Virus record (IMG/VR): IMGVR_UViG_3300006092_000059
Location: 12,516-76,515 of that record
Source: a virus
Taxonomy: Duplodnaviria > Heunggongvirae > Uroviricota > Caudoviricetes
DNA length: 64,000 bases
Strand: one strand, 5' to 3'
The notes beneath the pieces were generated by a model. It ran no database searches, had not been told where the DNA came from, and saw only the letters and a list, made by a program, of their open reading frames with translations. Every line of letters begins with the position of its first letter. Position 1 is the first letter of the stretch. Positions 7,080-48,520 of this stretch are shown here, one piece after another. Both the position numbers and the translations under genes were made by a program.

Positions 7080-7376
7080 TATAGAGTCTTTAAATCTTTC
7101 TTGTATAGAGGAAGGAAAGGTTGAATAATATTTTGAAAGCCTTTCAAATAAAATATCTAATTGATCTTGAGTAAGATCATTTTCATAAACAGTAAAATAC
7201 TCACATTGTTTTCCCTTTTCACACTTTGTAAATGTGTAAGTTCTTTCATCTTTTCTTCTAATTTTTTCTTGCTCTATTTTCCAATCTTCCATGAATTGAG
7301 CAGTTTTATTTTTATATGGCATACTACTTAGGTTCAAAGTCAAGTCCATGTTCTTTAACATAGTTACATATTTCAA
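7074..7376 (-). CDS. hypothetical protein (start may be the internal Met at 7322, immediately after the SET gene stop: TAGtATG)
   Basis: ORF in the same orientation as its neighbours. Its 5' 50 nt overlaps the upstream gene unless the start at 7322 is used. Confidence 0.4.
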   Translation of the reverse strand: MKYVTMLKNMDLTLNLSSMPYKNKTAQFMEDWKIEQEKIRRKDERTYTFTKCEKGKQCEYFTVYENDLTQDQLDILFERLSKYYSTFPSSIQERFKDSIK

Positions 7377-7704
7377 AATAATTAGAAGTTATTTCTTCTC
7401 CAGCTTTGATATTTTGTTTAGCAAATGTGCCCTCTTTATTGTCATATGTATTAGGAGTAGTAGAATGATTAATATGTCTAGCTTCATCTATACATACTAT
7501 CCATAAATTATTTTCTAGGTAAGCGTATTTATACAAAAATTTTGTTTCTAACTCATTCATTAGTTTCACAGAATCAAGTGAGTATTCTACGTCCATTCCA
7601 GGAGTAAATTCCCAAATCTTAGTATTTTTAGGTATTAAGTTTTTAGCAAATAAACCTATTCCTTTTCCTTGTGATTCTTTTAATTCTATTTCTACTTTTA
7701 ACAT
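7324..7704 (-). CDS. minimal SET-domain protein (putative protein-lysine methyltransferase, vSET-like)
   Basis: GKGIGLFA (GxG AdoMet motif), ARHINHSTTPNT (corresponds to RFINHSCxPN, with Cys replaced by Thr) and GEEITSNY (corresponds to ELTFDY). 126 aa, similar in size to chlorovirus vSET. Confidence 0.6.
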   Translation of the reverse strand: MLKVEIELKESQGKGIGLFAKNLIPKNTKIWEFTPGMDVEYSLDSVKLMNELETKFLYKYAYLENNLWIVCIDEARHINHSTTPNTYDNKEGTFAKQNIKAGEEITSNYFEICNYVKEHGLDFEPK

Positions 7705-8558
7705 AATTCATTAATATTTAAAATATCAATACTATTATCTCCATAATTAGTAACAATTACTTTATCTCCCTTGCTTGCAATTCCATGTGGAAAATCAAAT
7801 CTTTTTATTTCTCCTTTGTTCTCAAGTTTATCATTTTTTAATATAAAGTGTAATAAACTATCTTGACCTTGTAATGTAATAAATCCATTCTCTCCTGTTA
7901 AAGCAAGACAATCTGTTTGCCCATAAAATGGTAATTCAGCTAATTTTTTAAAACTAGGAAGCTCATATAAATACAAAATAGAATCAGTAATTTGTATAGG
8001 ATCTAATGATGGCCTACTATCAGATGTAGCTAATAATAATCTATTATTTAATAATAATAATAGATCTTTTGGATAATAATCAAAATTCTTAAATACTTCA
8101 TATTCCCCTGTTGGTAGATTAAAGATTAAACATTCTCTTCTTTTAGTATCAGTATTTGTAATAATAACATTATCCTGATCTATTATTCTACAACCATGAA
8201 ATTGATTAAAGTCTTTTCTTACTATATCTTTTACAAAAGATAATTTTCTATAATACTTGTCAACTTTATAAACTGATATACAACAAAATTCACTTCTTAT
8301 TGCTCTATTAGAAGTCATTATAATTCCATCCTTATAATCCATTAAATCTGGATGATAAGTTGTTTTTATCTCATCTATAATCACAGGATCTTTACTAATA
8401 TCTATTAGATATATAACTTTACCTAAATAGGAAGCAACTGCAATTAAATTATCATCAATAAAACATACAGCAGTAGCTGTGGCATATCTACTTCTTCTAC
8501 CAGCATATACTTTGTAGTATCCAGTAAGATCTATATTAGGAAGTTTGAATTTCATCAT
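7698..8558 (-). CDS. hypothetical protein, YVTN/NHL-type beta-propeller-like repeats
   Basis: C-terminal VIVTNYGDNSIDILNI resembles YVTN beta-propeller repeat signatures. Similar repeated segments occur through the protein. Confidence 0.3.
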   Translation of the reverse strand: MMKFKLPNIDLTGYYKVYAGRRSRYATATAVCFIDDNLIAVASYLGKVIYLIDISKDPVIIDEIKTTYHPDLMDYKDGIIMTSNRAIRSEFCCISVYKVDKYYRKLSFVKDIVRKDFNQFHGCRIIDQDNVIITNTDTKRRECLIFNLPTGEYEVFKNFDYYPKDLLLLLNNRLLLATSDSRPSLDPIQITDSILYLYELPSFKKLAELPFYGQTDCLALTGENGFITLQGQDSLLHFILKNDKLENKGEIKRFDFPHGIASKGDKVIVTNYGDNSIDILNINELC

Positions 8559-9252
8559 ATTTTTTTATTATTTTTTCAGGATTTTTCCAAGTTTTACTTT
8601 TTACTCTTTGAGCTATAATTCTTTGATATTCTAATCGTATTTTAGACTTCGTATTAGTATCAGCTTTTATAGTAAGATTTCTATCATGTATTCTTCTATT
8701 AAAAATAATAGTAGTAAGAGTAGCAGATTTGGCTCTGTTAAAGGTTAATCTATGTAAAAATTCTTCATCTGCACTACACTTCCAATTTTCATAACCATTT
8801 AGTTTATTAAAAATAGATTTTCTTATACCTATTACTCCACATGCTATTTCTATTTTTGCACGATTCATTCTACCATTTAGTATAGTAAAGTCTTGAAATT
8901 TTAGTCTTACTACATCTACAACTCTTATTAGATTATAAAATGATTGAACTAGAGTAGGTAGCATAGTATCATCACTATCAAAAAATATTATATATTCATA
9001 TTTAGCCTCATTTACAATATTATTTTTAACAGAATATGTTCCTACATTTTCTTCAAAATAAAAAACTCTACATCGCTTATAAAATTCTTTATTATCTTGA
9101 ATACTCTTCAGTGTTCTTTCACAATGATCCACACCTATAATAATATCTATGTCAACATTAGTTTGTTGATTATAGATAGACTGAATACATTCTTTTAGGT
9201 ATTCAGGTGTATTAAAAGTTGGAATTATGATTGAGACTCCTTTATCTGACAT
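8536..9252 (-). CDS. glycosyltransferase family 2 (GT-A fold)
   Basis: N-terminus SIIIPTFNTPEYLKECIQSI ... DIIIGVDHCE is the typical GT2 opening. An FDSDD DxD-like motif is present. Confidence 0.6.
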   Translation of the reverse strand: MSDKGVSIIIPTFNTPEYLKECIQSIYNQQTNVDIDIIIGVDHCERTLKSIQDNKEFYKRCRVFYFEENVGTYSVKNNIVNEAKYEYIIFFDSDDTMLPTLVQSFYNLIRVVDVVRLKFQDFTILNGRMNRAKIEIACGVIGIRKSIFNKLNGYENWKCSADEEFLHRLTFNRAKSATLTTIIFNRRIHDRNLTIKADTNTKSKIRLEYQRIIAQRVKSKTWKNPEKIIKKYDEIQTS

Positions 9253-9974
9253 TGTTTATTATAATTATAAAATTCTTCAAGAGTTTTTGTCCTCTTTACA
9301 TGATCTCCACTTCCTCTTTCAATTTTTTCTTTCCATTCTGGTAAAGATCTAGTATAAATATGTTTTATCCATACAAACTTAGAATGATGCCTACAAATAG
9401 GCCTTTTTACTTCTAAACCATCTTCATTAATATATCTACCTTTAATTATAGCTTTATGTGGATCTGGAAAATTTATAACAGCAGATGGTCTTACAATAGA
9501 TTTAATATGACCATTAGTATGATATTGATTATATTTTTCTATTGGTTGTCTTGTTTCAAAGTAAGGGTCATTTCCATACATTCTCCATGATAATCCTAAA
9601 GCATCAAACTTACCATATAATTTTTCTAATATAGTAAGATCTTCTTTTACATTCATAGTATTAGATGTATAAAATTCATCCGTATCTATAAATAACATCC
9701 AATCTATTCCTGTATAAGGTATAACTTGTTCACATGCATGTTTATAAGCTCTACACTGACTTCCTACCTCATTATCTTTCCAAGTATATACTGAAACAAT
9801 ACCAGGTTTTATAATACCTTTATCAGTAAGTTTATTTCTTAATTCACCTATACAATTTTTACTACCATTATCATATATCATAAAATGGTCAAACCCCACC
9901 TTTATATGGTGGAGTAGCCATTCTTCTAAATATTCATTTTCATCTTTTATAATAAGACAAACTGCAGTTTTCAT
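9225..9974 (-). CDS. GT-A-like glycosyltransferase (Glyco_tranf_2_4 / GT92-like)
   Basis: CLIIKDENEYLEEWLLHHIKVGFDHFMIYDNGS pattern and an LFIDTDEF DxD motif. Confidence 0.4.
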   Translation of the reverse strand: MKTAVCLIIKDENEYLEEWLLHHIKVGFDHFMIYDNGSKNCIGELRNKLTDKGIIKPGIVSVYTWKDNEVGSQCRAYKHACEQVIPYTGIDWMLFIDTDEFYTSNTMNVKEDLTILEKLYGKFDALGLSWRMYGNDPYFETRQPIEKYNQYHTNGHIKSIVRPSAVINFPDPHKAIIKGRYINEDGLEVKRPICRHHSKFVWIKHIYTRSLPEWKEKIERGSGDHVKRTKTLEEFYNYNKQCQIKESQS

Positions 9975-10339
9975 TTTACTTCTATAAGTACTTGTTTTTT
10001 AAAGTTATAAATATATTTTGCATGGTTAGCATTCATTAAAAAATGAGATAATTCTTCACACCATATATCTATACTTAATTCACCTATAGTAGTTTTAATA
10101 CCTCCATAGCTATTAATAGTATAAGAATTAAAGCCTCTATTATTTATTAAAGCAGCTATAGTTCTTGTAGTAACTTGAAATAACTCTCTGTTAGGAACTA
10201 TTATATCAAAGTCATTTGGTTTTTCATCTTTAAGAAGTTTTTCTAAACAACTTCCTACTATCCATCCTTCTGATATTAGTAATAAACTAATAATTTCTGC
10301 AGGTAAATCTCTATAAAATTTATTCTTTATATTTTCCAT
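9971..10339 (-). CDS. hypothetical protein, minimal nucleotidyltransferase-like
   Basis: WIVGSCLEKLL ... NDFDIIVPN resembles the GS ... DxD core of Pol-beta-superfamily nucleotidyltransferases. Weak. Confidence 0.3.
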   Translation of the reverse strand: MENIKNKFYRDLPAEIISLLLISEGWIVGSCLEKLLKDEKPNDFDIIVPNRELFQVTTRTIAALINNRGFNSYTINSYGGIKTTIGELSIDIWCEELSHFLMNANHAKYIYNFKKQVLIEVK

Positions 10340-12078
10340 TAATTTATTTGTCTAAATGTAATTTCTGGATTATTTTCAAGCCATATACTTAATAATCTTT
10401 CAAGTATAAACGTATGAAAAGTATAATAATCTAGACCAGTTTGAAGTTTTAAAGCATCTGTTGGTAAGCCTGCTTTATAATTAGCATTAGTAAATGCTTC
10501 TTCTTTAAACTCAGTTTCTAATAATTCAATAGCAGGTTTTATTACCTCATTTATATATTTTTTGTATATAGAGTATTTTCCTATCCAAAAATTTGAATAA
10601 ATGATATTTTTAGGCTCAATTAATTTTAAATTAAGCTTATGACATATTTTAGTAAATAGACTCAAAAATCCTGGATGAGAATATTCCGTAAAAGCCAAAT
10701 AATGTTTTTTTATAAAACTAGGAGATAATCCTATTATATCAGGAATTCCTTCAGCTTTTAACTCATTAAATATCTTTGTTACTAACTTTTTAGGAAGTCT
10801 TGTTTTATATGGAAACTTCCAACTAAATATTCCTAAATAATCATTATCTTTAAAGTCATTATTATCAATTAAATTAATAATAGGATTATACTCAAATAGA
10901 TAACTTTTTTCCTCTACAGTTCTAATTGGGTTGTATATAGGAGTATATTCAGTAGATTGATCTAAAGTATAAGTTATTCCATAAATTTTTAAATCTTCTG
11001 GAGTAACTTCTGTTGATTCATTCATTAGGAATTCACAAGCTAATCTTAAATTATCAATTCTTTGCTCAAAATGATTATTAGTTTTTACAACTTCAGAAGC
11101 TTCTTTTCCTACTTTTTTGAAAGATCTATCTTTTACTAAACTTTTAACCCATCCATAATATTCAGATGTCTTCTCAGCAGGTAAAATTGTTGATACCTCT
11201 TTATCAATATAAAGAGAACTTCCTATTACAGGAATTTCTTTACAAGCAGCTTCTATTAGTTTAAGAGAACTTTTACATTCTGCAAATTCACTCTTTTCAA
11301 GTGGAGCTAATAAAATATCTATTTTATCATAAAGATCCATATATGAATCAGTAGATTTACCTTCTAAGACCTCTACTTCCATTTTTGGATTAACTTTAAA
11401 CAAGGATACAATCTTGTCCCATTTCTTATTAGGTTGATATCCTGCTATAGTAAATTTACATTTTTTTTGTATGTCACTATCATTAGCTAACTTTTGAACT
11501 GTAGTTCTAAGTAACTGCCAATCACTATAATGGGCTAATCCTCCACAAACACCTATAGATATCTTACCATTAGATTCTTCCTTTTTAGGAATGAACTGAT
11601 TTTCTCCTAAAGGTAGAAAATTAGGACTAATTGTTACATATTTATTAAAACTTACACAATGAGCAGCTAATCTTTGTGTTGATACAGTTACTATATCTGC
11701 AAGCACTATTAAACCTATTAAAGAACTATAATCAGTTTTACTCTGTATATGATTTTTAGGAAGTTCCCAAAAGTCATCAACATCTTGAACTAATTTAAAT
11801 CCATATTTAGATTTCCAGCCAGATATTTGAGCAATTGGATTAGAATAGATCCAATTTACCCAAACAATATCGTAGTTTTTAACTACTTCTTCTTGTAATT
11901 CATACTTACCTGGTTCATGTTCTAAAATATCTACCTCAATAATTGCCTTTTCTCCTTTTATTTCAATTTCTTTACCCCTTAAATAAGAAAGGGGAAGAGC
12001 CACACGGTGATACCTTGAGCCACTTCCCTTCTCTATTAATCCTAAAATTTTTACTTGTTTCATCTGGCAAATATACAA
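10339..12078 (-). CDS. GT-B-type glycosyltransferase-like protein with an extra C-terminal domain
   Basis: KSSLKLIEAACKEIPVIGSS resembles the GT4 E ... GLPLIEAMACGxPVI motif. The ~220-aa C-terminal extension is unassigned. Confidence 0.35.
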   Translation of the reverse strand: MYICQMKQVKILGLIEKGSGSRYHRVALPLSYLRGKEIEIKGEKAIIEVDILEHEPGKYELQEEVVKNYDIVWVNWIYSNPIAQISGWKSKYGFKLVQDVDDFWELPKNHIQSKTDYSSLIGLIVLADIVTVSTQRLAAHCVSFNKYVTISPNFLPLGENQFIPKKEESNGKISIGVCGGLAHYSDWQLLRTTVQKLANDSDIQKKCKFTIAGYQPNKKWDKIVSLFKVNPKMEVEVLEGKSTDSYMDLYDKIDILLAPLEKSEFAECKSSLKLIEAACKEIPVIGSSLYIDKEVSTILPAEKTSEYYGWVKSLVKDRSFKKVGKEASEVVKTNNHFEQRIDNLRLACEFLMNESTEVTPEDLKIYGITYTLDQSTEYTPIYNPIRTVEEKSYLFEYNPIINLIDNNDFKDNDYLGIFSWKFPYKTRLPKKLVTKIFNELKAEGIPDIIGLSPSFIKKHYLAFTEYSHPGFLSLFTKICHKLNLKLIEPKNIIYSNFWIGKYSIYKKYINEVIKPAIELLETEFKEEAFTNANYKAGLPTDALKLQTGLDYYTFHTFILERLLSIWLENNPEITFRQIN

Positions 12079-12519: not shown

Positions 12520-12686
12520 GATCTTAATTCTAATTGTGACTCACTAAAAATATGAAGCATTCCATTACCTTCTAGTTCAGCTACTACTCTTATTTCTCCT
12601 TTAGTGGTAGTGAAAACTGCTACGATTATTCCATCAAATGAATAACCTTTTGGTTTATAAACCTTGTCTGTTACTTTAAATTTCAT
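12516..12686 (-). CDS. small hypothetical protein (56 aa, not in the ORF track)
   Basis: Reverse strand reads MKFKVTDKVYKPKGYSFDGIIVAVFTTTKGEIRVVAELEGNGMLHIFSESQLELRS. It fills an otherwise empty 166-nt gap. Its start overlaps the upstream stop as TAATG and its stop overlaps the next start as ATGA, consistent with translational coupling. Confidence 0.4.
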   Translation of the reverse strand: MKFKVTDKVYKPKGYSFDGIIVAVFTTTKGEIRVVAELEGNGMLHIFSESQLELRS

Positions 12687-13144
12687 TAGTCATAAATTGG
12701 AAAAAAGTGACTACAAGTACCAAAAGATGTACCAAATAATTTTTTAATTATAAGATATTCTTCTTCAGTAATTTCTTGTATATTCAAATTACTAAAGTAA
12801 TCTTCCTTGCTATAGAAAGTTAAAGATTCATTAGTACCAAATCCAAGTTCATATTCTTTTCTTCTAAATTTATGATTCCATTTATCTGGTTCTTTTAAAT
12901 ACTGCTCATAGGTAACAATAACACCATGTTTATTTTCCTTTGAAGGATATTCAATATACTTATTATAAGAACTTATTTTATCAAATTGTTCTTCTGTAAC
13001 ATTTCCTACTTCAAAAAAGGTATCTAATATGTCTTCAGTTTTCTTTCTATTCTTAAGATAATCTGTCTCATTACATATTATAAAAGCTTTTACATCAAAT
13101 TCATCAGCGTAATCAGCTGACATCTTAATTAAATAATATTTCAT
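12686..13144 (-). CDS. hypothetical protein (N-terminus paralogous to the 13949..14458 product)
   Basis: MKYYLIKMSADYADEFDVKAFIICNETDYLKNRKK aligns with MKKYYLLTFNEDWADEHYVPALECFTEEDFNKWKK. Confidence 0.4.
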   Translation of the reverse strand: MKYYLIKMSADYADEFDVKAFIICNETDYLKNRKKTEDILDTFFEVGNVTEEQFDKISSYNKYIEYPSKENKHGVIVTYEQYLKEPDKWNHKFRRKEYELGFGTNESLTFYSKEDYFSNLNIQEITEEEYLIIKKLFGTSFGTCSHFFPIYD

Positions 13145-13962
13145 TAAATTAATTCATTTAAAGATTTTATTCGTTTATATCCAACATTATATCGTTGATT
13201 ATGTGGAGTATCATATAAGAAAGTACATATACCTGCTTTATTTAAAGCTATGAAATTATCATAACAATCATCTACAAAGATATCAATCCCACTCTCTTTA
13301 GCCACTTCTACTTTGGATTGTCCACTTCCTACACAATATACAGGTTTTGTTGGAAATCCATGCATATCAAGCCATTTAATTGTAGTTTCAACAGGAATAG
13401 GTCTAGATGTAATATAACAATGAGGTTCAAAAGGAATATCTGTTGGTTTTAACAAAGGTTTTAATCCTAAGTAAAAATCATTAAGAGTTCCTTTTTCTCT
13501 CATAGCATCAAATCTATTTCTAATTTCTCTATCAAAATACCAAGCTGTAGCTACATCTTTAATATTGTGAAGCTCTCTCCATGCATTAATCCAATCACAC
13601 AACACTTCATCAATATCTAAGCCTATTTTAGGTGTTGCTAGATAGTTGTGAGGTCTATCATCTCCTTGTGGATAAATCTTATAATAATCAACTAGGAACA
13701 TTGCATTACACATTACATGAGCTGCATGTAGCAATCCAGTTTCTTTATCAAAATCTTCTCCACTTTCAATAGCAGTAAGATGTCTTTTTAGACTTCCTAT
13801 TACTCTGCTCCATTTCATTCCTTTCCGCCAATTATTATCAGCATATTTAGCTGCTCCGAAGGTTAATACTTTTGCTAATTCATTAATAGCAGTAGGTGAG
13901 AGCAAATCCTGCCTCACCTTACCACTATCAAATCTTAATCCTTTGTCTTCATTCTGTTGCAT
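13144..13962 (-). CDS. bifunctional nucleotide-sanitising enzyme: N-terminal all-alpha dATP/dGTP-diphosphohydrolase-like (MazG-related) domain fused to a HAD 5'(3')-deoxyribonucleotidase
   Basis: N-terminus LRFDSGKVRQDLL ... AAKYADNNWRKGM ... LLHAAHVMCNAMFLVDY matches the phage dNTP-diphosphohydrolase N-domain pattern. The C-terminus has HAD motif I GLDIDEVLCDW, as in NT5C DxDGVL. Confidence 0.5.
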   Translation of the reverse strand: MQQNEDKGLRFDSGKVRQDLLSPTAINELAKVLTFGAAKYADNNWRKGMKWSRVIGSLKRHLTAIESGEDFDKETGLLHAAHVMCNAMFLVDYYKIYPQGDDRPHNYLATPKIGLDIDEVLCDWINAWRELHNIKDVATAWYFDREIRNRFDAMREKGTLNDFYLGLKPLLKPTDIPFEPHCYITSRPIPVETTIKWLDMHGFPTKPVYCVGSGQSKVEVAKESGIDIFVDDCYDNFIALNKAGICTFLYDTPHNQRYNVGYKRIKSLNELI

Positions 13963-14458
13963 CTAAAAAATCTTTTGAACATTCAATATGAGTAGGAGCA
14001 CTTATATAATCTCCATTTATAATAAATGTATGTACATCATGTGAAGTTCCCACTTTAATTTGATTCATACAGTGCTCACATACTTTGTTTTTTCTTCCTT
14101 TTTCTATTCTATTAGTTTCATATAAATCTTCTTTGTTGAATCCATTTCCATTTGGATTTTCTTGTTCTAAATCAAATACACAAGAAAGACTTAAACCTCC
14201 AAGACTTGCTTTGTGAAATACTTTATAAAAGGCTTCATCTACTACTGTTTTACTTACACAGTCTTTTAATAATTGCTCTCCAGTCAATCCTTGTAAATCT
14301 TCACAAAATTCATCTCCACTATTACCTAAATTGGCACTTGGATAGATTTTTAATTTTTTCCATTTATTAAAGTCTTCTTCTGTAAAACATTCTAATGCAG
14401 GAACATAATGCTCATCTGCCCAATCCTCATTAAATGTTAATAAATAATATTTTTTCAT
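13949..14458 (-). CDS. hypothetical protein, Cys-rich (paralogous N-terminus)
   Basis: See 12686..13144. Contains CEHC ... HIEC Cys/His pairs. Confidence 0.4.
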   Translation of the reverse strand: MKKYYLLTFNEDWADEHYVPALECFTEEDFNKWKKLKIYPSANLGNSGDEFCEDLQGLTGEQLLKDCVSKTVVDEAFYKVFHKASLGGLSLSCVFDLEQENPNGNGFNKEDLYETNRIEKGRKNKVCEHCMNQIKVGTSHDVHTFIINGDYISAPTHIECSKDFLDATE

Positions 14459-14461
14459 TTT

Positions 14462-14737
14462 TTAAATTTTTATAAAACTTCCATTCCAAGAATTTATTCT
14501 TCTTTTATGTCCATTTTTCATTTTAATTCCATATACATCAAATTGATCATATACTGTTTGATTTAGTTCTCTATCATATCTTCTTTGCAGATATGGGTAT
14601 TGAACTACTATTCCTCTTTGTAGTCTACAAGAAGTTGAAGCAGGGGCATAAATTACTTCATCCCCTACATTCACCTCCTTACCAAAGAAATCTCTTATTT
14701 CTATTTCTTGACCTAATGCATTTCTATACGTTATCAT
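14462..14737 (-). CDS. hypothetical protein
   Basis: 91-aa ORF. Confidence 0.35.
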   Translation of the reverse strand: MITYRNALGQEIEIRDFFGKEVNVGDEVIYAPASTSCRLQRGIVVQYPYLQRRYDRELNQTVYDQFDVYGIKMKNGHKRRINSWNGSFIKI

Positions 14738-15576
14738 CTTCTTCCAATTTCATCAGGATATAGATCTTTACAGAAATCTGATTGCCAGTATTCCTTAGTA
14801 TCTATATCCATTATAGTCAATCTACCTACAAATCCAGCTCCTGTATCTAGATTCCATAAATTAAATCTGTTCATAGGAACAGTAACAGGAATTGTTCCTT
14901 TCTTTATAACTAATCCAGTTGAAACAGATACTTCTTCATCTTCCCACCAATTTACAGTAGCAGTATGTCCTATATAAATCTCTTTATAAGATCCATTAGT
15001 TTTTACTTTTTTGTATCTGCTGTCTATCATTGTAGAAGCTCCAACAGCACTATTCCATAAATCTCTATCCCAATATAACACTTGATCAGGTTGATCTGTT
15101 ATAGGAAGATGTCTATTTATTCCTCCATGTACAAATAATCTTTTCTTGTCATCAAGATAGTATCTGTTTTGATATTTAAAGAATTTTACGTGACTTTCTG
15201 GTATATTTCCAGGATTGAAGTTAGTAATTACTGTTTGTTCTTCATGATCCCATTTAAGTTGGAATTTATCCCAACTTCTACCTAAACAATTAAATCCATA
15301 GCTTTTTAAAGTAGCTAAAGCTCCATGTTTAAATCTTTCAGGATGAATTCCTCCTTGAATATATTCATTCCACCACCAATCATGATTACCTCTTATAGCA
15401 ATGAGATTTTTGCATTTTAAGAGCAATTCTACACATTCAAAAGATTCACCCCATCCATCTACAATATCACCTAAATCTATCAGTAAATCCTCTTCAAAAT
15501 CAAATTTTGCTCTATCAAAGCATTGTTGCATGGCTTTTGCAGCTCCATGCTTGTCTCCCATTACAAATGTTCTCAT
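14734..15576 (-). CDS. calcineurin-like metallophosphoesterase (lambda Ser/Thr phosphatase / ApaH-like)
   Basis: GDKHG, GDIVDGW and GNHDW motifs in the canonical order and spacing (GDxHG ... GDxxDRG ... GNHE). Confidence 0.7.
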   Translation of the reverse strand: MRTFVMGDKHGAAKAMQQCFDRAKFDFEEDLLIDLGDIVDGWGESFECVELLLKCKNLIAIRGNHDWWWNEYIQGGIHPERFKHGALATLKSYGFNCLGRSWDKFQLKWDHEEQTVITNFNPGNIPESHVKFFKYQNRYYLDDKKRLFVHGGINRHLPITDQPDQVLYWDRDLWNSAVGASTMIDSRYKKVKTNGSYKEIYIGHTATVNWWEDEEVSVSTGLVIKKGTIPVTVPMNRFNLWNLDTGAGFVGRLTIMDIDTKEYWQSDFCKDLYPDEIGRR

Positions 15577-15661
15577 TTTTTAAATATAAATATCATTATT
15601 AACAATGTTATTACTGCTATAAAGAATTCTTGTGTATTTATTATATTATTAACAATCCATT

Positions 15662-16057
15662 TCATAGTCCATATTGTTCAGGATATTTAGCATATGCTTT
15701 AAAAGTATTTCTAAACTCCTTACTTCTATTTTTAAATGTTTTCAATGTATAACCATGAATCTGTTCAAGATCTTCATAACCTCCTTCTTTATAGGATTGT
15801 CTTAGAATTCTTCCTTCATAATCTCCTAATAAATATAGTCCTAGTAATTTACTAAAGGTATAATAGTCTATTTCACTATACTTATTATAGGATCTATTTT
15901 TCCAATTTCTACGAGCTTCTATAGATATTTCCTTAATAAGTTCTAAGATTTTCCATATTCTTTTATCTTTGTATCTTTTGTACTTTCCACTATCCCATGC
16001 ACTTCTTATATTATGCATAAGCATTTGTAAAAGTAATACTTTTTCTCTTAGTATCAT
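15662..16057 (-). CDS. hypothetical protein
   Basis: 131-aa ORF. Confidence 0.35.
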   Translation of the reverse strand: MILREKVLLLQMLMHNIRSAWDSGKYKRYKDKRIWKILELIKEISIEARRNWKNRSYNKYSEIDYYTFSKLLGLYLLGDYEGRILRQSYKEGGYEDLEQIHGYTLKTFKNRSKEFRNTFKAYAKYPEQYGL

Positions 16058-16440
16058 CTTAATAAATAATAAGTTAAGAATAATTGTGAATAGTGTAATA
16101 ATTGGTCAAATCCAATTACTGAAAATGCTCCAGTATTAGGAATTGGAGATCCAAATTCACCTTTAGCAAACTTTTTACTTACTATCCTACTTGTTATATA
16201 ATCTGTAAGTGTATGCAATACAAATGTAATTGGTATAAACCATAACATATTAGGACTATAACAAGTAAGTAATCCCAAAATAGAAATTACAGGAATCCAA
16301 CAAGTAGTATAAACAACTGTATGTTTCAATAATGCTTTAATACTCTTACTTTTATTAGTAGCCCATTCTTCATCTTGCATTATAAAATCTGCAAAGTAAT
16401 GTGTCACTAATATAGAGAATATTACTAATAAACTTATCAT
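16054..16440 (-). CDS. small integral membrane protein (DUF3307-like)
   Basis: Several TM segments. HYFADFIMQ near the N-terminus. Confidence 0.35.
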   Translation of the reverse strand: MISLLVIFSILVTHYFADFIMQDEEWATNKSKSIKALLKHTVVYTTCWIPVISILGLLTCYSPNMLWFIPITFVLHTLTDYITSRIVSKKFAKGEFGSPIPNTGAFSVIGFDQLLHYSQLFLTYYLLR

Positions 16441-16814
16441 ACTCTTCCTTTGTATTTTTCCTCATCCATGTAAGACTTAAATTTGCCTAGTTTATAGAAT
16501 ACTCTTTCCTCACATCTTGTTTCACCAAATAGTTTAAATAGAATAGATATCCTAATAGCTACATCTCCAATTTCTTCAATTATCTCTTCATCTCTAGGTT
16601 CTTTAGGGCCTCCTTTCTTAATTACTTTCTTAATTAATTTCTCTTGTAGTTCTGCCAATTCTTCAATACATTTTAATAGATTATAATCTGGCTCATTATA
16701 TTCTATCATTCTTTCTAAGGTTTGTTCTCCTTCTTCATACTTTCTTCTCCATTCTGTATCATTAGCTAAATCTAGTTCAAATGACTCTGGATTAATTCCT
16801 GGTACTTCTTCCAT
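16437..16814 (-). CDS. MazG-like NTP pyrophosphohydrolase (second copy)
   Basis: EELAELQE ... EEIGDVAIR matches the MazG ExxE ... E ... D metal-binding pattern. Confidence 0.5.
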   Translation of the reverse strand: MEEVPGINPESFELDLANDTEWRRKYEEGEQTLERMIEYNEPDYNLLKCIEELAELQEKLIKKVIKKGGPKEPRDEEIIEEIGDVAIRISILFKLFGETRCEERVFYKLGKFKSYMDEEKYKGRV

Positions 16815-17115
16815 TATGATATTCTTCCTTTAATTTTTCTTGTAATTCAAATAAAAATTTCCACTTCTCTTGATCTTTAATTTTATGTCGTTTAAATTCC
16901 CACAGTTGATGTTCTTCTGGAGTCATTAATATTATATTCTCTTTTTTAAGTCTGTATGAAGGATACAGTCCTTTTGGTAGTATATGAGAAAATTGCCAGT
17001 GCCATTGAGAATGCCCTTTTCCATGTAAAGGTAGTCCACTAATCTCAGATTTATGTTCACGTTCTTCCCAAATTATACTAAATAAATGCGCTTGATTTTT
17101 TATGTTATCCTTCAT
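16792..17115 (-). CDS. hypothetical protein, possible HNH-like nuclease
   Basis: His-rich core HGKGHSQWHWQFSHILPKG. Weak. Confidence 0.25.
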   Translation of the reverse strand: MKDNIKNQAHLFSIIWEEREHKSEISGLPLHGKGHSQWHWQFSHILPKGLYPSYRLKKENIILMTPEEHQLWEFKRHKIKDQEKWKFLFELQEKLKEEYHNGRSTRN

Positions 17116-17533
17116 TTTGTCTAAATATTACAAGCATAGATGGAAAAGGAGCAGAATTTTTACTCTTTCCAAATTTCAATCTACCCTTAATAAATCTTAT
17201 TTCTTGCTGTCCATAAATATATTCATGAAAAGCTATTGTATCAGTTCTTGCAGGTAGTAAAGCAACTACTACAGCTCCTTTTTGAGCTTCTTCATATGCT
17301 TTCTTTATCCATAATTTTGATTGATTATATGGAGGATTCATCCAACATATATCTTTAGACCAGTCTTGAACTAGTCCATTTTTCTTAACATCAAAGAATT
17401 TCTCACATTTGTTTGTATTAATATCTGCACAAACATCTAATGTAAATTTAAATTCTTCATTTAAGATTTCAAATAACCATTGAGGAGTTTCCCAAGTGTT
17501 ATTTTCACTACTAAACATTAATTCTGTATTCAC
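17105..17533 (-). CDS. dam: phage Dam-like DNA N6-adenine methyltransferase
   Basis: ETPQWLFE ... DVCAD ... WMNPPY (the NPPY catalytic motif). Small Dam_MT architecture. Confidence 0.6.
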   Translation of the reverse strand: MNTELMFSSENNTWETPQWLFEILNEEFKFTLDVCADINTNKCEKFFDVKKNGLVQDWSKDICWMNPPYNQSKLWIKKAYEEAQKGAVVVALLPARTDTIAFHEYIYGQQEIRFIKGRLKFGKSKNSAPFPSMLVIFRQNEG

Positions 17534-17759
17534 TTTACATAATTAAATAGAATCTGTCAGGTGGATAGGGCATGACTATTCCTATCCTATTTAAACCTTC
17601 CTTTCCTACCCTTTTAATTTCCTGCTTATCTTACCATAGCTGGCTAATACGAGTTTACATTAGATTGCTCTAATTTCAAGGGTACAGGATTTGATCTAGT
17701 TATAGCTTACAGGCTTAAACTAATTTTTGCATTCAGGTGCTGACATTTTCTACTTATAT

Positions 17760-18110
17760 TCAATTAAGGTTGCCTTTGTATTTCTCTATTAGTTTTTCAA
17801 TATGCTGAAGGTAATAATTAACAAAATTATCATGTCCTTCTGGATCTTGTTTCCAGTTTAAGTACATTACTGCACGCAGCCTTTTGGAAGGGCTTATAGT
17901 GTTAATTTCATCAACCTTTAGATTTTTTATTAAATCCGCTTCATCATTAGTGAAATTTTCTTCCTTGATAGCTACATAAGCTAGCTTACCTTGCAGATGG
18001 AATAAAGTACCTGCTTTCTCTGGAGTTAACTCCTGTGTTCCCAACACTATTTTAAGAGTAGAATCTTTTCTTGTGTTTATCCCTTCTACTGTTGCTGGAA
18101 TCACTATCAT
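17760..18110 (-). CDS. hypothetical protein
   Basis: 116-aa ORF. Confidence 0.35.
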   Translation of the reverse strand: MIVIPATVEGINTRKDSTLKIVLGTQELTPEKAGTLFHLQGKLAYVAIKEENFTNDEADLIKNLKVDEINTISPSKRLRAVMYLNWKQDPEGHDNFVNYYLQHIEKLIEKYKGNLN

Positions 18111-18433
18111 CTATTGTCCCCAGAGCCTTGTAAGACTCCTCTTAATCTTCTATCTTCAAGTTTTTTTATATTTGCATCAGCAATACTGTCTAGAGAAATT
18201 CCTAAGTCTTGAGCTGTAGCGGCTACATACCATAGTACATCACCCAATTCACTAGCAATTCCTTGATTAAGTTCTGGAGTAAACACCCCATTGTTATCAC
18301 GTAATACTTTCTTTATCTTCCCTAGAACTTCTCCTGCTTCATTAGCAAGACCAAGTGATGGATAAATAATAGCATTACCTGCTCCATATACTGCTGTTTT
18401 TAATGCTTTTTCTTGATATTCCTTAAAATCCAT
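18107..18433 (-). CDS. mazG: MazG nucleotide pyrophosphohydrolase
   Basis: LANEAGEVLGKIKK ... ASELGDVLWYV ... ANIKKLEDR is a canonical MazG single-domain signature. Confidence 0.7.
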   Translation of the reverse strand: MDFKEYQEKALKTAVYGAGNAIIYPSLGLANEAGEVLGKIKKVLRDNNGVFTPELNQGIASELGDVLWYVAATAQDLGISLDSIADANIKKLEDRRLRGVLQGSGDNR

Positions 18434-19132: not shown

Positions 19133-20809
19133 TTAAACTCCACAGACACCACCTTTATTGGTGATATCACATACATCATGAAACTGTTCCTTAAATTCTT
19201 GCCCCTCATGCTTTTTAGCTTCATAGTAATCAACTGATGTCAATGGTTGTCCACCTCTTGCTCCATCTGGATAACATGTAAAGCCTCTAAGTCTTGGTGC
19301 ATATTTTGCTAACACTCCAGCAAATTCAAGTACTTTAGTATCATTATTCAATTCGGTTCCCCATTTAGGAAGATTTATAGTACTACTAATAGACATATCT
19401 ACGTAGTCTTGTATATCAGCCTGAAAAGCTATTCTCTTTTCATAATTACTAGCCAGATCTAAAGCTGATTCAACTTCTTCAGGTTTTATTCCAAAGTCTT
19501 GAATTAGTATTTTAGCTGTACCATCAATTACATATTGATAATGCCATTCTTTTTGGTTTCGTAAGTATCTTCTCTTATATGCTATTGCAAATAAGGGTTC
19601 AATACCTGTTGTTGTACCTGCCATAATTCCAATAGTTCCAGTAGGTGCTATTGCCCTCACCTTAATTGGTCTAGATATTCCGAGTTTATCTGCAAGCTCA
19701 TTTGCTGCAGCTCTGGAAGTGTCTCTATATATCTCTAGCCATTGGTGTAATTCAGGAACCACTTCATATTTATAGCCTCTTTTTAACAACCACTCATGGA
19801 TGCCCATAAGCCCCAAACCCAATCTTCTATTCTTTTCTCTTACTTTATAGATTTTATCATATGGCAGTTGTGCCACTAATGTTCCACATAATAAGAAATA
19901 AGTAGAAAGTCTGACTACTTCCTTAAATCTTTCAATAGTATCAATATTTGCCATATTAATACTACCAAGATTACATACATCACTATCATCTTCACTTGTC
20001 ACCTCTGTACAAGCATTCCTAAGAGTCTCATTCTCATCTTTCCCAAAGTTGAATGAAAATCCTGGCTCTCCTGTTTTAAGAGCTTGTCTGCAATTTTCCA
20101 CAAAAGTAACTGGAATGTTACCCGTTTTCAATGCTTCTAGGAAGGCATTATCATAATTCAATGATATATTAGTCATGTCAAGAGGAGCTGGGAAGTTAAA
20201 GTCTTTCTGCTTCAGATATCCTATTGTTAATAGGTTCTCATTTTCATCATATCCACCGTTTACTGGCATACTAAACCAGTCTTTACAGTGCAGAAATTCA
20301 TTAACATCACCATGCAGCCAATTCAGAGATGCATAAATTGCACTTCTCCTACTGCCACCTTGCATCACTTCCCTACCTATTTCATTGAGCATTCTCATCT
20401 TTGAAATAGGGCCAGAGGCTATACCTCCTGTCTTAGAAATAGGTGCACCCTTTCTTCTATATCTACTATAATCATTACCAATACCTCCACCTGTCATTAA
20501 ACAGGATTCTGCTTTCCAAGATAAATTAGCCCAATCCTCTCTGGAGTCTTCTTCAGATCTCAATAGGTAACAGTTATTGAAGAACTTGTTAAGTCTCCCA
20601 GCATAGTAGAGGTATCTACCTCCAGCTATAAATTCCATGTTGGAATGGATATTAACAAGTTCTTCTTTATCTGTTGAGCTTAAATTATCTCTACATACAT
20701 CTTCAATAAGTGTTTTACTTAACTCTGCCCAAGTCTGGGCTCCTTCATGTGCATATTTGTGTTTAAAAATACTTTCAGAAAAATCTGTTCTAAATTCTGA
20801 TTTTCTCAT
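19133..20809 (-). CDS. ribonucleotide reductase catalytic subunit (possibly class II / B12-dependent; no small subunit in the window)
   Basis: Active-site motifs RNACTEV (N-x-C-x-E thiyl-radical site) and CNLGSINM. C-terminal Cys pair ...CDITNKGGVCGV. Confidence 0.85.
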   Translation of the reverse strand: MRKSEFRTDFSESIFKHKYAHEGAQTWAELSKTLIEDVCRDNLSSTDKEELVNIHSNMEFIAGGRYLYYAGRLNKFFNNCYLLRSEEDSREDWANLSWKAESCLMTGGGIGNDYSRYRRKGAPISKTGGIASGPISKMRMLNEIGREVMQGGSRRSAIYASLNWLHGDVNEFLHCKDWFSMPVNGGYDENENLLTIGYLKQKDFNFPAPLDMTNISLNYDNAFLEALKTGNIPVTFVENCRQALKTGEPGFSFNFGKDENETLRNACTEVTSEDDSDVCNLGSINMANIDTIERFKEVVRLSTYFLLCGTLVAQLPYDKIYKVREKNRRLGLGLMGIHEWLLKRGYKYEVVPELHQWLEIYRDTSRAAANELADKLGISRPIKVRAIAPTGTIGIMAGTTTGIEPLFAIAYKRRYLRNQKEWHYQYVIDGTAKILIQDFGIKPEEVESALDLASNYEKRIAFQADIQDYVDMSISSTINLPKWGTELNNDTKVLEFAGVLAKYAPRLRGFTCYPDGARGGQPLTSVDYYEAKKHEGQEFKEQFHDVCDITNKGGVCGV

Positions 20810-24305: not shown

Positions 24306-25982
24306 TTAATACAAACTATCTAGAATTCCATTACTATAAGCAAATTTCTTATCTCCATCAAATTCAATGTTATTTGCGATAACATCTTCTTTCTTGGTAG
24401 CTTCTGCTATTTGCTCTTTTCTATGTCTAATATAACCAATTAAATAATTAGCTACATCTTTTCCTGTAGTATCTTCGAAATCATAATTTCCAAAGTAATC
24501 AGAAAAACCATGTAGAATATCTTCTAATGAAGGTTTTATTTTACGACTAATAATTTCTTTTGTATATCTTTCTGCAAAAGTAACAATTCCTACACAAATA
24601 AACAACCAATTAGATATTTTTGTGAAATTAAAAGTTGGAGTATGTATTCTAAATTCTAAGGTACGATTTGCACTGAATATTAAAGAATTAAAATTTACAA
24701 GATAGTATCTTGTAGGTATGCCCCATTTTTGCCCACCAAGAGGGTGAATAAGAGAGGTCATATTATAAGAGTCATTCATTTCTGGAACTTTCCCATCAGT
24801 TAAAAACTCAAATATTTTATTAAAATTCTTTCTTACATCATTTGAAAATTCGTGCTTAGTATTGTATATCTTTTTGTACAAAGAGTTAGTCATTATTCCT
24901 ATATTAGGAAGTCTTTGATTGTATCTCTTCTGTTTTCTTAAATATTTTACTTCATCTGATTTATATAAAGGAAATATAGAATAAATTTCATCTTGGATAG
25001 TTTGCATTATTATCCAATATGCTAGAATTGTAAGTTCATCATATTTTATATTACCAATATGTATATGCATTGAACATGTAGTATCAAACTCACATTTACT
25101 GTTGAGTTCACCACATATTCTTTTAATAGCTTGTAATCCTTTGTCCCCTTGCATAGGAACTGTTGTATATTCATAAGGCTCTATACCAGAAGCTCTTCTT
25201 AAACTACCATCTTTTAAAGGAACTAATCCTAAAGGCCCTAAAAGCTTTTGTGGAACAGTACCATTACAAGACTCTAGCTCAATACCAAATGTTTTTCCAA
25301 ACAAAAGTTTGCTAAGTTCTGATGTACGCTGATTTGATGGATACACTGTTTTATCATACATATCTTTGATAGTACGAAATGAAGGATTTCCTGCTGATGC
25401 ACTATAATCAAATGGTAGATTTTTATATCTTATAACTCTGGGAGTTACTATACTTTTTAATTCATCTTTATCAAGATTACTTTTTTTGTAGTAGAGGTCA
25501 TTCCATTTACATGGAATATATCCCATTGCTAAAGCTATTTTTTCATTCAGACAGGCTGTTGTTTGGGAAGTATGATATCTTTCAACTGTTTCTACAACTT
25601 CTTCAGTTCTTTTAAAGAAAGCTCTATTTCCTTTAGTGTCAATAAATCCTTCTATAAGATCTTTATTTTGTTGTAATTCTTCTATTAATTCATATTTACC
25701 TGTAGTAAAATTTAAACCAATCTTACCACTTGATAATCTATACCATTCTCCATCAGAAGCATCATCAGAATACCCTATCCAGAAACAGGTTACGCCTTTT
25801 TCATGATATTCTTTATGATTCTTATAATAGATACATTTACTTCTTGGTACAACTTTTCCTTCAACTGTTTTTACCTGTTTTTCCTGAGTAATTTCCATAC
25901 CTTTCTTTTTTTTAGAAGACAATTGCCGTTTCGGAGTTAACTGGATTTTGGCTTTTTTGCTCTTCTTTTGTAATGTGCTCAT
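24306..25982 (-). CDS. amidoligase (COG2170 / YbdK / GCS2-like carboxylate-amine ligase) with a Lys-rich N-terminal tail
   Basis: KTFGIELESCNG matches the YbdK TLGIELE substrate/Mg site. CSMHIHIGN matches YbdK GQHVHVGC. The first 28 codons (KKSKKAKIQ ... KKKKG) overlap the GATase gene by 70 nt; an alternative start is at 25898. Confidence 0.55.
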   Translation of the reverse strand: MSTLQKKSKKAKIQLTPKRQLSSKKKKGMEITQEKQVKTVEGKVVPRSKCIYYKNHKEYHEKGVTCFWIGYSDDASDGEWYRLSSGKIGLNFTTGKYELIEELQQNKDLIEGFIDTKGNRAFFKRTEEVVETVERYHTSQTTACLNEKIALAMGYIPCKWNDLYYKKSNLDKDELKSIVTPRVIRYKNLPFDYSASAGNPSFRTIKDMYDKTVYPSNQRTSELSKLLFGKTFGIELESCNGTVPQKLLGPLGLVPLKDGSLRRASGIEPYEYTTVPMQGDKGLQAIKRICGELNSKCEFDTTCSMHIHIGNIKYDELTILAYWIIMQTIQDEIYSIFPLYKSDEVKYLRKQKRYNQRLPNIGIMTNSLYKKIYNTKHEFSNDVRKNFNKIFEFLTDGKVPEMNDSYNMTSLIHPLGGQKWGIPTRYYLVNFNSLIFSANRTLEFRIHTPTFNFTKISNWLFICVGIVTFAERYTKEIISRKIKPSLEDILHGFSDYFGNYDFEDTTGKDVANYLIGYIRHRKEQIAEATKKEDVIANNIEFDGDKKFAYSNGILDSLY

Positions 25983-27654: not shown

Positions 27655-27657
27655 ATT

Positions 27658-28473
27658 TTAATTTTTTTCTTTTAATGCTATTATTTTTGGAAGTATTTCC
27701 AAGTATTTTTGTTTTAAATAACCACTCATCCATCCAGCTGAGTTAGCTTCTAATAAAGCCCATTTAGGATTTTTTCTGTGTTTGTCATAAGCATTTGTAT
27801 TGCCTTGTAATTTAATATCAAAGCAACAAATATCCATACCTATAACCTTAATAGCTTTCTGACAATCTTCTATAATATCTAACCAATTATCTGGATGCTC
27901 AAAAGCTTCATTTTTCTTTCTGTAATTATCTATATGTACTTCATGGATCCAAATAGAATTTTTATCATTTGGTTTCCAATCTCCATCATCTTTAGCTCTT
28001 ACACGCATCTTTCTTAATCCTGCAATATAACCAAAGTCTTTAGATATATAAATTCTTACTTCTTTTGCATAACCTAAATATTCTTCAAATATATAGGCTT
28101 CACAATTATGCTCTTCAATAAACTTTTCAAAGGCATTAAAATCATCAAGTTTATAAACTCCTAATGATTGTGAAGATGTTCTTCTTTTAGCTATGATAGG
28201 AAAATCCATTTCTGCTACCATAGTAGTAAGTTTCTCAGGATTATCACTCCATCTCCATTCTGAATGCTGTACACCTGCTTTATCAAATGCTTCTTTTGTC
28301 AATTTTTTATCTACACAGGTTTCTATTGCCTTTATAGGATTAATTTCAAAATCACATTTATAAGGAGTACACGAACCAAATCTTATACATCCTTTTCTAG
28401 ATGATTTAAATTGATTCTTTACATAGTCATAACTCTCATGCGTTGACGAGAATATTATTACTGGGTTGCTCAT
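27658..28473 (-). CDS. ATP-grasp ligase (RimK / glutathione-synthetase-like)
   Basis: FPIIAKRRTSSQSLGVYKL ... EAYIFEEYLGYAKEVRIYIS matches the ATP-grasp central domain pattern. Confidence 0.55.
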   Translation of the reverse strand: MSNPVIIFSSTHESYDYVKNQFKSSRKGCIRFGSCTPYKCDFEINPIKAIETCVDKKLTKEAFDKAGVQHSEWRWSDNPEKLTTMVAEMDFPIIAKRRTSSQSLGVYKLDDFNAFEKFIEEHNCEAYIFEEYLGYAKEVRIYISKDFGYIAGLRKMRVRAKDDGDWKPNDKNSIWIHEVHIDNYRKKNEAFEHPDNWLDIIEDCQKAIKVIGMDICCFDIKLQGNTNAYDKHRKNPKWALLEANSAGWMSGYLKQKYLEILPKIIALKEKN

Positions 28474-29790: not shown

Positions 29791-30053
29791 ATAAATTCTT
29801 CTACTGCTTTATCAGTTGCACTGTTTAGAGCATCTACTCTTCTACAATACACAGGATTTGAATTAAATGTTTTACTACCTTCCTTGTTACTTAAAGTATA
29901 CCAATACATTCCTGGTGTTATTCTAGATTCAAATACACTCAAATTAACTCCTTTATCAGCAATTAACCAAGTTCTTAATACTGAGTAAAATAAACCAGTT
30001 TTTATTTCAGGGAGTTTGAATCCTTTTTCTAATGCTGATTTTAATACACTCAT
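29787..30053 (-). CDS. hypothetical protein
   Basis: 88-aa ORF. Confidence 0.35.
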   Translation of the reverse strand: MSVLKSALEKGFKLPEIKTGLFYSVLRTWLIADKGVNLSVFESRITPGMYWYTLSNKEGSKTFNSNPVYCRRVDALNSATDKAVEEFI

Positions 30054-30054
30054 A

Positions 30055-48352: not shown

Positions 48353-48445
48353 TGTTCTGTGTCATTAAATATTTTCTAGATTTACCTAGAATTAATACAT
48401 GAATTGTTTTTGTTCTCTTTAATTTAATCATAAATTCAATTTAGT

Positions 48446-48520
48446 GGTTCCTACAGGATTTGAACCTGTGACCTTGACATTATGAGTGTCCTGCTCTAAC
48501 CAGACTGAGCTAAGAAACCT
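48446..48520 (-). tRNA. tRNA-Met (anticodon CAT; could be an Ile-lysidine type)
   Basis: Reverse complement GGTTTCT-TA-GCTC ... GAGC ... anticodon loop CTCATAA ... T arm ACAGG-TTCAAAT-CCTGT ... acceptor AGGAACC. Cloverleaf by hand. Confidence 0.7.

Follow-up and report, generated by a model that had tools for sequence, protein, structure and literature searches.

We analyzed a 64-kb window of DNA from an uncultured tailed phage (Caudoviricetes; positions 12,516 to 76,515 of the IMG/VR record IMGVR_UViG_3300006092_000059), the whole stretch to which the coordinates below refer, and focused on a block of genes at its positions 13,144 to 18,433. The block encodes a fusion of a DUF5664 domain with a HAD-type deoxyribonucleotidase-like domain, two small MazG-type enzymes (MazG108 and MazG125), a PPP-type metallophosphatase and a Dam-family adenine methyltransferase (Table 1). 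A first-pass annotation, made from the sequence alone, had listed these five open reading frames (ORFs) as a redundant set for sanitation of the deoxynucleoside triphosphate (dNTP) pool. All five are present, on the minus strand, which carries almost all genes from ~7 kb onward in the window. Neighboring genes overlap or adjoin each other (-1 to -23 nt) throughout the block except at two gaps, of 85 and 226 nt, an arrangement that suggests co-transcription; a scan for promoters and terminators was uninformative (52 promoter-like sites vs 53.6 expected). The GC content of the window is ~29.6%. Two metagenome assemblies, independent of each other, contain the block (Logan contigs of 33.7 kb and 9.7 kb, both inside the window span). 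One metagenome scan gave relatives at ≤56% identity only, and no contigs encoding the gene at the right end of the window were found.

The central gene of the block is the fusion. Its N-terminal domain matches the Pfam family PF18909 (dGTP_diPhyd_N, DUF5664) at profile positions 2-99 of 99 (E 1.1e-34; 118.8 bits, cut-off 27), and the whole protein matches phrog_37590, labeled 'unknown function', along its full length (7.7e-104). The C-terminal domain scores 22.4 bits against Pfam NT5C, slightly under the cut-off of 24.8; many homologs that are 60-75% identical to the fusion carry this family (PF06941). The HAD motifs I-IV are intact, with D116-x-D118, V120, T185/S186, K217 and D231-D232 invariant or nearly so in 35 homologs. 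An AlphaFold2 (AF2) model of the fusion built from 35 homologs has a predicted local distance difference test score (pLDDT) of 89.4, and a Foldseek search with its C-domain returned the human cytosolic and mitochondrial 5'(3')-deoxyribonucleotidases cdN 2i7d (2e-4) and mdN 6g2m/6g2l as top PDB matches, followed by the class B acid phosphatase AphA. In its DxDxV motif I and its motifs II-IV the domain resembles NT5C/NT5M and AphA, its best structural matches, but it shares only ~15% identity with NT5C/NT5M, lies under the Pfam cut-off for that family and is joined to a pyrophosphatase.

The conserved residues of the N-domain are K15, R17, D19, K39, R60, H61, E69, D70, D72, E74, H79 and H82, a set of basic, histidine and acidic side chains that is compatible with a metal-dependent phosphohydrolase. 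The EExxE...ExxD metal-binding motifs of MazG are absent from this domain. Foldseek with the N-domain alone gave no significant match, the fusion sequence and its profile produced noise only against the PDB, and NCBIfam held no match for the fusion, MazG108 or MazG125. Of the earlier description of the protein as a MazG-related N-domain fused to an NT5C-type nucleotidase, the fusion and the intact NT5C-like HAD domain are borne out, and the N-domain is assigned to DUF5664/PF18909. Two small ORFs flank the fusion gene, each with a homolog in the related contig L010; their N-termini are similar (KYYL..-.D.ADE; 42% identity over 33 aa, E 3e-4), and the upstream one, whose C-terminus is rich in Cys and His, runs 14 nt into the start of the fusion gene.

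At E≤1e-5 the fusion has 1905 homologs in the databases, of which the best 120 are all full length with 60-75% identity; several sources annotate such homologs as 5'(3')-deoxyribonucleotidase. Cultured carriers include the Cellulophaga phages phi38:1, phi40:1 and Calle_1, the Leptolyngbya phage Lbo-JY46, Salinibacter phages and the Maribacter phage Panino. The PF18909 domain itself was counted in 1072 records of phages, those of Propionibacterium, Arthrobacter and Mycobacterium among them. In the literature that we searched, no experimental work on a DUF5664-HAD fusion turned up, and nothing was found on phage NT5C-type nucleotidases or on Lbo-JY46. We labeled other fusion-bearing loci, contigs and relatives by L-numbers (L001, L010, L066, etc.). 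The fusion gene lies between Prim-Pol and PolA in Calle_1, near a polymerase in Lbo-JY46, after Prim-Pol and before a ribonucleotide reductase (RNR)-like gene in L005, and after DNA Pol III alpha in L068; in the lineage of the window (L010, L006 and L066) it follows an amidoligase cluster and a PD-(D/E)XK nuclease. The fusion is an abundant, uncharacterized architecture of marine phages, found in the replication modules of many unrelated genome types.

The two single-domain MazG-like enzymes of the first-pass annotation were both recovered, by different routes. MazG108 is a classic phage MazG, matching Pfam MazG (PF03819; E 3.6e-10, 40.4 bits, cut-off 22) and phrog_229 'MazG-like pyrophosphatase' (5.3e-36), with ExxE and ExxD motifs in the form EAGE...ELGD. 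Similar genes occur in 877 phage records (Synechococcus, Streptomyces, Roseobacter and others), which include 299 Synechococcus phages, and often adjoin DNA polymerase I. Its PDB matches are weak (iMazG 2q73 as the best, 5ie9 and YpjD). MazG125 is subthreshold in Pfam MazG (E 0.063, 14 bits, cut-off 22), so that support of the MazG fold by hidden Markov models, the lack of which was named earlier as a refuting result, comes from Pfam for MazG108 and from a family profile for MazG125. That profile matches Bacillus subtilis YpjD 2gta (E 2.4e-4), 5ie9 and iMazG 2q73 with the motifs aligned; EELxEL and EEIGDV are invariant in 17 homologs, and the protein matches phrog_2245 'NTP pyrophosphohydrolase' (1e-9). 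By these sequence criteria MazG125 is a genuine but divergent MazG subfamily. An exhaustive profile search collected 892 representative clusters at E≤1e-3, nearly all of them stand-alone proteins of ~100 aa. Of 50,697 records of cultured phages, just three have a MazG125-like gene, with Lbo-JY46 and Cellulophaga phage phi14:2 as the sole carriers.

The three pyrophosphatases are not redundant copies. Profile-profile comparison with hhalign gave a probability of 0.06 for MazG125 against the fusion and an E-value of 0.05 for MazG125 against MazG108; recent paralogy was rejected, and the set comprises three distinct families rather than duplicates. In its single-domain form, its ExxE...ExxD motifs and its membership of the same PHROG/tblastn family, MazG108 resembles the MazGs of Synechococcus phages, and its best PDB sequence match is the integron iMazG (2q73); MazG125 differs from the cyanophage MazG and iMazG in forming a separate, Pfam-subthreshold subfamily. 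A tested cyanophage MazG prefers dGTP and dCTP and does not hydrolyze (p)ppGpp (PMC6850273). By analogy with that enzyme, a dGTP/dCTP preference would suit a ~30% GC genome.

By analyzing the gene neighborhoods within ±10-20 kb of the fusion in 12 distinct fusion-bearing contexts, we found the set to be only partly coherent. A MazG125-like gene is near the fusion in 5 of the 12 contexts (the window, L010, L006, L002 and L067), a lambda-phosphatase-like gene in 4 (the window, L001, L005 and L006) and a MazG108-like gene in 3 (the window, L010 and L006), while a PF05869 Dam is confined to the window and missing at the 11 other loci. The pyrophosphatase trio is retained in the distant relatives L010 and L006 at 27-65% protein identity. 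In L066, where the fusion is 75% identical, the other four genes are all missing nearby; the fusion also stands without other set members in L008, L068, L069 and L070, and the metallophosphatase encoded just upstream of the fusion gene in L010 is of another subfamily. The fusion is often accompanied by MazG125. The strongest hint that the two form a functional pair is L067, an unrelated 155-kb contig encoding RecA, a canonical dUTPase and RNR, in which a MazG125-type gene (98 aa) lies directly upstream with its stop overlapping the start of the fusion gene (L067:9708-10810).

The remaining two genes are not dNTP-pool enzymes. The metallophosphatase matches Pfam Metallophos (7e-13, 49.9 bits, cut-off 21.5) and phrog_246 'NinI-like Ser/Thr phosphatase' (6.5e-37), carries the motifs GDKHG, GDIVDG and GNHD, and has lambda Ser/Thr phosphatase 1g5b (1e-10) and then ApaH 9t9n (3e-4) as its best PDB matches, in agreement with the ApaH/lambda-phosphatase-like identity assigned earlier. 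It shares the PPP-type motifs and the best PDB and PHROG matches with lambda phosphatase (NinI) and ApaH, but it is ~60 aa longer than the lambda enzyme, does not keep the Arg of GDxVDRG (GDIVDGWG) and is far under the NCBIfam equivalog cut-offs for PrpA/PrpB (49.6 bits, cut-off 326) and ApaH (42.1, cut-off 176). The Dam-type identity of the methyltransferase was also confirmed: it has the NPPY motif and matches PF05869 (1.4e-31, 109.9 bits, cut-off 28.1) and phrog_111 (3.4e-56), with 84.5 bits against the TIGR01712 equivalog, below its cut-off of 97; an alternative ATG start at 17518 would give 137 aa. Its gene is 68% identical in nucleotides to the methylases of Lactococcus 936-group phages. 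GATC occurs at 107 sites in the window, an observed/expected (O/E) ratio of 0.62. An HNH-like ORF, Dam and a 116-aa ORF separate the two MazG genes, which in L010 are ~0.5 kb apart. From the 226-nt gap, the nucleotide identity and the adjacent HNH-like ORF, the Dam cassette looks like a local insertion between the MazG genes, probably acquired horizontally and with a putative anti-restriction role.

Table 1. Features of the block and of the rest of the 64-kb window
Feature	Position	Strand	Length	Support or remark
DUF5664-HAD fusion protein	13144..13962	-	272 aa	DUF5664/PF18909 N-domain and NT5C-like HAD C-domain
Fusion N-domain, DUF5664/PF18909 dNTP pyrophosphohydrolase	~13654-13947	-	aa 6-103	Pfam
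Fusion C-domain, NT5C-like HAD 5'(3')-deoxyribonucleotidase	~13147-13626	-	aa 113-272	motifs, fold
MazG108, classic phage MazG nucleotide pyrophosphohydrolase	18107..18433	-	108 aa	Pfam MazG, phrog_229
MazG125, divergent MazG-type all-alpha NTP pyrophosphatase	16437..16814	-	125 aa	phrog_2245, family profile
PPP-type metallophosphatase, lambda Ser/Thr phosphatase/ApaH type	14734..15576	-	280 aa	Metallophos, phrog_246
Phage Dam-family N6-adenine methyltransferase	17105..17533	-	142 aa	PF05869; GTG start
Small HNH-like ORF	16792..17115	-	107 aa	phrog_12434 HNH endonuclease, E 4e-4 only; overlaps Dam gene end
ORF between Dam and MazG108	17760-18110		116 aa	
Non-coding gap upstream of Dam	17534-17759		226 nt	largest gap in block
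ORF flanking the fusion gene, downstream	12686-13144	-		
ORF flanking the fusion gene, upstream	13949-14458	-		
DUF3307 membrane protein	16054..16440	-	128 aa	PF11750 2.6e-11; phrog_2470 4.9e-18
Ribonucleotide reductase (barrel domain)	19133..20809	-	558 aa	PF02867 3.9e-48; directly upstream of block
SET-domain protein, then three glycosyltransferase-like genes	7324-12078	-	126 aa (SET-domain protein)	directly downstream of block
'Polyvalent' protein	514-6663	+	2049 aa	N-terminal ADP-ribosyltransferase (ART-PolyVal) domain
Amidoligase module	24306-30423	-		
phiEco32-type COOH-NH2 ligase	42931-43749	-		
NAPRTase-family and PRPP-synthetase-like genes, adjacent	44393-46875	-	554 aa and 273 aa	
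Seven tRNA genes	48444-60457	-		Met, His, Leu-TAA, Gln, Trp, Lys, Arg-TCT
HNH endonuclease among the tRNA genes	51921-52394			
LAGLIDADG endonuclease among the tRNA genes	54805-55269	+		
Ppx/GppA-like protein (exopolyphosphatase/pppGpp phosphatase)	60620-61822	-	400 aa	Pfam 1.1e-6, TIGR03706 7e-9

Among the neighboring genes, RNR-like genes adjoin the fusion in L005, L010 and L067 as well. The DUF3307 gene overlaps both of its neighbors by 4 nt and is a member of the overlapping-gene run; a link of its product to nucleotide metabolism is not evident. The three glycosyltransferase-like genes encode a GT2 protein, a GT2_4/GT92-like protein and a 579-aa protein matching phrog_7162, the last of which is 49% identical in L010. 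At its left end the window has two ORFs listed on the plus strand, one of which is the gene of the polyvalent protein, and distant relatives of this protein are located at the ends of many fusion-bearing loci.

The most unusual feature of the window is a lineage-specific avoidance of CpG, which speaks neither for nor against the nucleotide-pool finding. The 64 kb contain 230 CpG dinucleotides (symmetrized O/E 0.16), with a GpC O/E of 1.07 and no excess of TpG/CpA; CCGG is absent, CGCG occurs once and GCGC four times. The CpG O/E is 0.25 at codon positions 1-2, 0.11 at positions 2-3, 0.21 at the 3-1 boundary and 0.26 in non-coding DNA. The closest relatives are likewise CpG-poor (L010, 0.09; L066, 0.17), and GC-matched marine phage loci have values of 0.44-0.84. 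In a survey of bacteria, an O/E below 0.78 was taken as significant depletion, and low CpG was linked to GC content, phylogeny and thermophily (PMC11282364). No C5-methyltransferase gene was found in the window, and the avoidance may reflect host mimicry or escape from a CpG-directed defense.

On balance we lean toward ordinary auxiliary nucleotide metabolism of a phage as the explanation of the block, which would then consist of individually mobile accessory genes, three of them acting on nucleoside triphosphates, and would be no evidence of a replaced DNA base. It would belong to the early/replication arm of the genome of an uncultured tailed phage of marine type with ~30% GC, and its core element would be the fusion. 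The predicted role of the DUF5664 domain is to convert (d)NTPs to the monophosphates ((d)NMPs) and pyrophosphate (PPi), by analogy with a standalone member of the family in Arthrobacter phage Wayne, which converts dATP (kcat 0.48/s, Km 20 uM), dUTP and dGTP to dNMPs and does not hydrolyze ribonucleoside triphosphates (rNTPs) (PMC12884076). The fused HAD domain, judging from its intact motifs and modeled fold, would then remove the 5'-phosphate via a phospho-enzyme intermediate at Asp116, so that the net effect would be dNTP to dNMP to deoxynucleoside, which leaves the phosphorylated pool. MazG108 and MazG125 would trim or sanitize other (d)NTPs; they may clear away non-canonical dNTPs as house-cleaning enzymes or shift the pool to suit an AT-rich genome. 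The lambda-phosphatase/ApaH-type enzyme and Dam may serve separate functions in host takeover and anti-restriction and share the gene run by happenstance; the label of a dNTP-pool sanitation set is thus reasonable for three of the five genes, and does not extend to the metallophosphatase and Dam.

Several points weigh against this explanation. House-cleaning creates no obvious need for three enzymes plus a nucleotidase, and a complete breakdown of dNTP to nucleoside recalls the purge carried out by base-replacing phages (DatZ; DmtZ-DutZ, which takes dATP to adenine; PMC12884076). No recognizable dUTPase is encoded in the window, so that one of the enzymes may fill that role instead of shaping the pool. 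The N-domain has neither an ExxE/ExxD motif nor a solved homolog, and its predicted chemistry rests on a single characterized relative. In addition, part of the genome is unseen, since the source contig is reported at 76.5 kb, relatives lie on contigs of 95-155 kb, and the 64-kb window has no recognizable structural genes.

A partial parallel to the proposed two-step breakdown is the PUA-Calcineurin-HAD defense of bacteria (bioRxiv 10.64898/2026.01.15.699771), in which a metallophosphatase, rarely a MazG-like enzyme, works with a HAD phosphatase to degrade dNTPs. That system acts on the side of the host, through abortive infection, and relies on a PUA sensor and on the assembly of filaments, whereas the PUA domain is absent here. 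The order of steps also differs from that predicted for the fusion, as the HAD enzyme there takes the first step (dATP to dADP) and breakdown ends at dAMP.

A possible but rather doubtful alternative to auxiliary metabolism is that the block is a counter-defense island, in which one or more of the MazG-type enzymes would deplete (p)ppGpp or destroy immune or toxic nucleotides (chain terminators or signaling nucleotides, for example), the ApaH/lambda-phosphatase-like enzyme would clear Ap4A-type alarmones or undo the phosphorylation of proteins, and Dam would act against restriction. Atd1, a MazG-like protein of phages, depletes (p)ppGpp and confers protection from the toxicity of TIR-STING and retron-TIR, and Atd1-type genes cluster with methyltransferases and genes for nicotinamide adenine dinucleotide (NAD) biosynthesis (bioRxiv 10.1101/2022.06.09.495361). 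The likeness to Atd1 lies in a small phage MazG catalytic domain, a methyltransferase in the region and NAD-salvage genes elsewhere in the window; the NTase, TIR and STING context is absent here. On the same side are the variable, recently acquired character of Dam, the rank of ApaH enzymes as second-best relatives of the metallophosphatase, and two further loci of the window. One of these is the adjacent pair of nicotinate phosphoribosyltransferase (NAPRTase)-family and phosphoribosyl pyrophosphate (PRPP)-synthetase-like genes, and the other encodes the Ppx/GppA-like protein. MazG108 belongs, on the other hand, to the family of the cyanophage MazGs, one of which was tested without (p)ppGpp activity (PMC6850273), and the sole DUF5664 biochemistry concerns dNTPs, with rNTPs inactive (PMC12884076). 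The fusion partner is, moreover, a deoxyribonucleotidase-like HAD domain, and the fusion is embedded in replication modules.

Both loci carry observations of their own. The NAPRTase/PRPP-synthetase-like pair recurs close to the fusion in contig L008 (371 kb), and we take it to resemble the phage NAD+ reconstitution pathway NARP1, which counters NAD-depleting defenses. The Pfam and TIGR03706 matches of the Ppx/GppA-like protein are both far below equivalog cut-offs, and from this similarity the protein could be linked to alarmone control.

The first-pass annotation had argued that three MazG-type enzymes exceed housekeeping needs and fit a hypermodified genome, as phages with a replaced base typically encode dNTPases that purge the competing canonical dNTP. 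On this reading the phage would replace or hypermodify a canonical base and the fusion, possibly with MazG125, would be an irreversible sink for the competing canonical dNTP, on the model of DatZ/MazZ or DmtZ-DutZ in Z-genome phages or of the dTMPase/dTTPase of U- and hmU-DNA phages. We regard this as unlikely. Pfam scans, which covered essentially all ORFs of ≥100 aa in the window (~70 ORFs), detected no ThyA/ThyX-type hydroxymethylase, PurZ, DpdA/FolE/QueCDE, dCMP deaminase or dUTPase, and base-synthesis genes were likewise absent from the ~20-kb fusion neighborhoods of eight other contigs. The PF18909 and MazG108 families are found in ~1000 and ~900 phage records, mostly phages with ordinary DNA, and DUF5664 has been placed in canonical-genome phages too (PMC12884076). 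All families of the block are also represented in phages with canonical DNA. The fusion occurs in very different phage types, one of them with a canonical dUTPase (L067), and its carriers phi38:1, phi40:1 and Calle_1 are not among the Cellulophaga phages reported to have 7-deazaguanine DNA. Uracil DNA was rejected, as a gene for a uracil-DNA glycosylase (UDG)-superfamily protein is present next to the primase. Given the missing synthesis genes, the widespread families, a common amidoligase module, a phosphatase and a Dam outside the pool enzymes, and the L066 fusion without the other four genes, the inference of hypermodification is unsupported.

Arguments on the side of a replaced base do exist. 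The breakdown of dNTP to dNMP to nucleoside suits a purge better than recycling, and DUF5664 is part of MazZ in the Acinetobacter Z-genome phage SH-Ab 15497 and is used by the PurZ0 phage Wayne (PMC12884076). The fusion N-domain matches the complete PF18909 profile as these proteins do, but the Wayne DUF5664 stands alone and the SH-Ab 15497 MazZ is a DUF5664-DUF550 protein, whereas here the domain is joined to a HAD nucleotidase and the PurZ, DatZ and DpoZ context is absent. The DmtZ-DutZ (NDT-Dut) protein of PurZ0 phages, known from Wayne, is a precedent for a dNTP pyrophosphatase joined to a dNMP-destroying domain (PMC12884076). Its domains are a trimeric dUTPase and a nucleoside deoxyribosyltransferase (NDT) instead of DUF5664 and HAD, and its second step is an N-glycosidic cleavage or transfer instead of the dephosphorylation predicted here. 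Further points are a MazG/dUTPase-like gene that Cellulophaga phage phiST has in its 7-deazaguanine cluster (PMC10516641), the retention of three divergent NTP pyrophosphatases together in L010 and L006, and the extreme CpG avoidance of the genome. A broader version, which we hold to be very doubtful, would make the fusion, often with a MazG125-type enzyme, a dedicated irreversible sink for one canonical dNTP in a large group of marine phages, in whose DNA the corresponding base would be substituted or strongly skewed through a pathway that homology does not recognize; the carriers meant are phi38:1, Calle, Lbo-JY46, Salinibacter phages and, beside the CpG-avoiding lineage of the window, many other uncultured genomes.

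The amidoligase module of the window comprises Amidoligase_2, a class-II glutamine amidotransferase (GATase), a RimK-like ATP-grasp protein, a 216-aa protein, the UDG-superfamily protein and a gamma-glutamyl cyclotransferase (GGACT), with the COOH-NH2 ligase encoded apart from it. It is conserved in L006, L010, L035, L066 and Lbo-JY46, and amidoligase/GATase/ATP-grasp clusters have also been reported in LUZ24-like, TC6 and OM43 phages. We considered the cluster, together with the COOH-NH2 ligase, as a sign of hypermodification and rejected it as a widespread phage module.

Finally, it is very unlikely that the block is a chance juxtaposition of unrelated accessory genes in a permissive early region and the set a grouping artefact: although L066 has no other members near the fusion, Dam is found in the window genome only among the 12 contexts, the L010 metallophosphatase is of another subfamily and the fusion is alone in L008, L068, L069 and L070, the MazG125-like genes, so rare among cultured phages, lie within 20 kb of the fusion in five of the 12 contexts, MazG125 is translationally coupled to the fusion in L067, and the pyrophosphatase trio is kept in L010 and L006 despite its sequence divergence.

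The analysis corrects an over-interpretation of the block as a sign of base replacement. That the fusion is repeatedly paired with a MazG subfamily that is rare suggests a pathway of two enzymes, and the predicted two-step dNTP-to-nucleoside activity, which is open to assay, would extend the recently characterized DUF5664 family. The purge of a canonical dNTP, if true, would indicate that common marine phages harbor a substitution of a DNA base that is as yet undiscovered.

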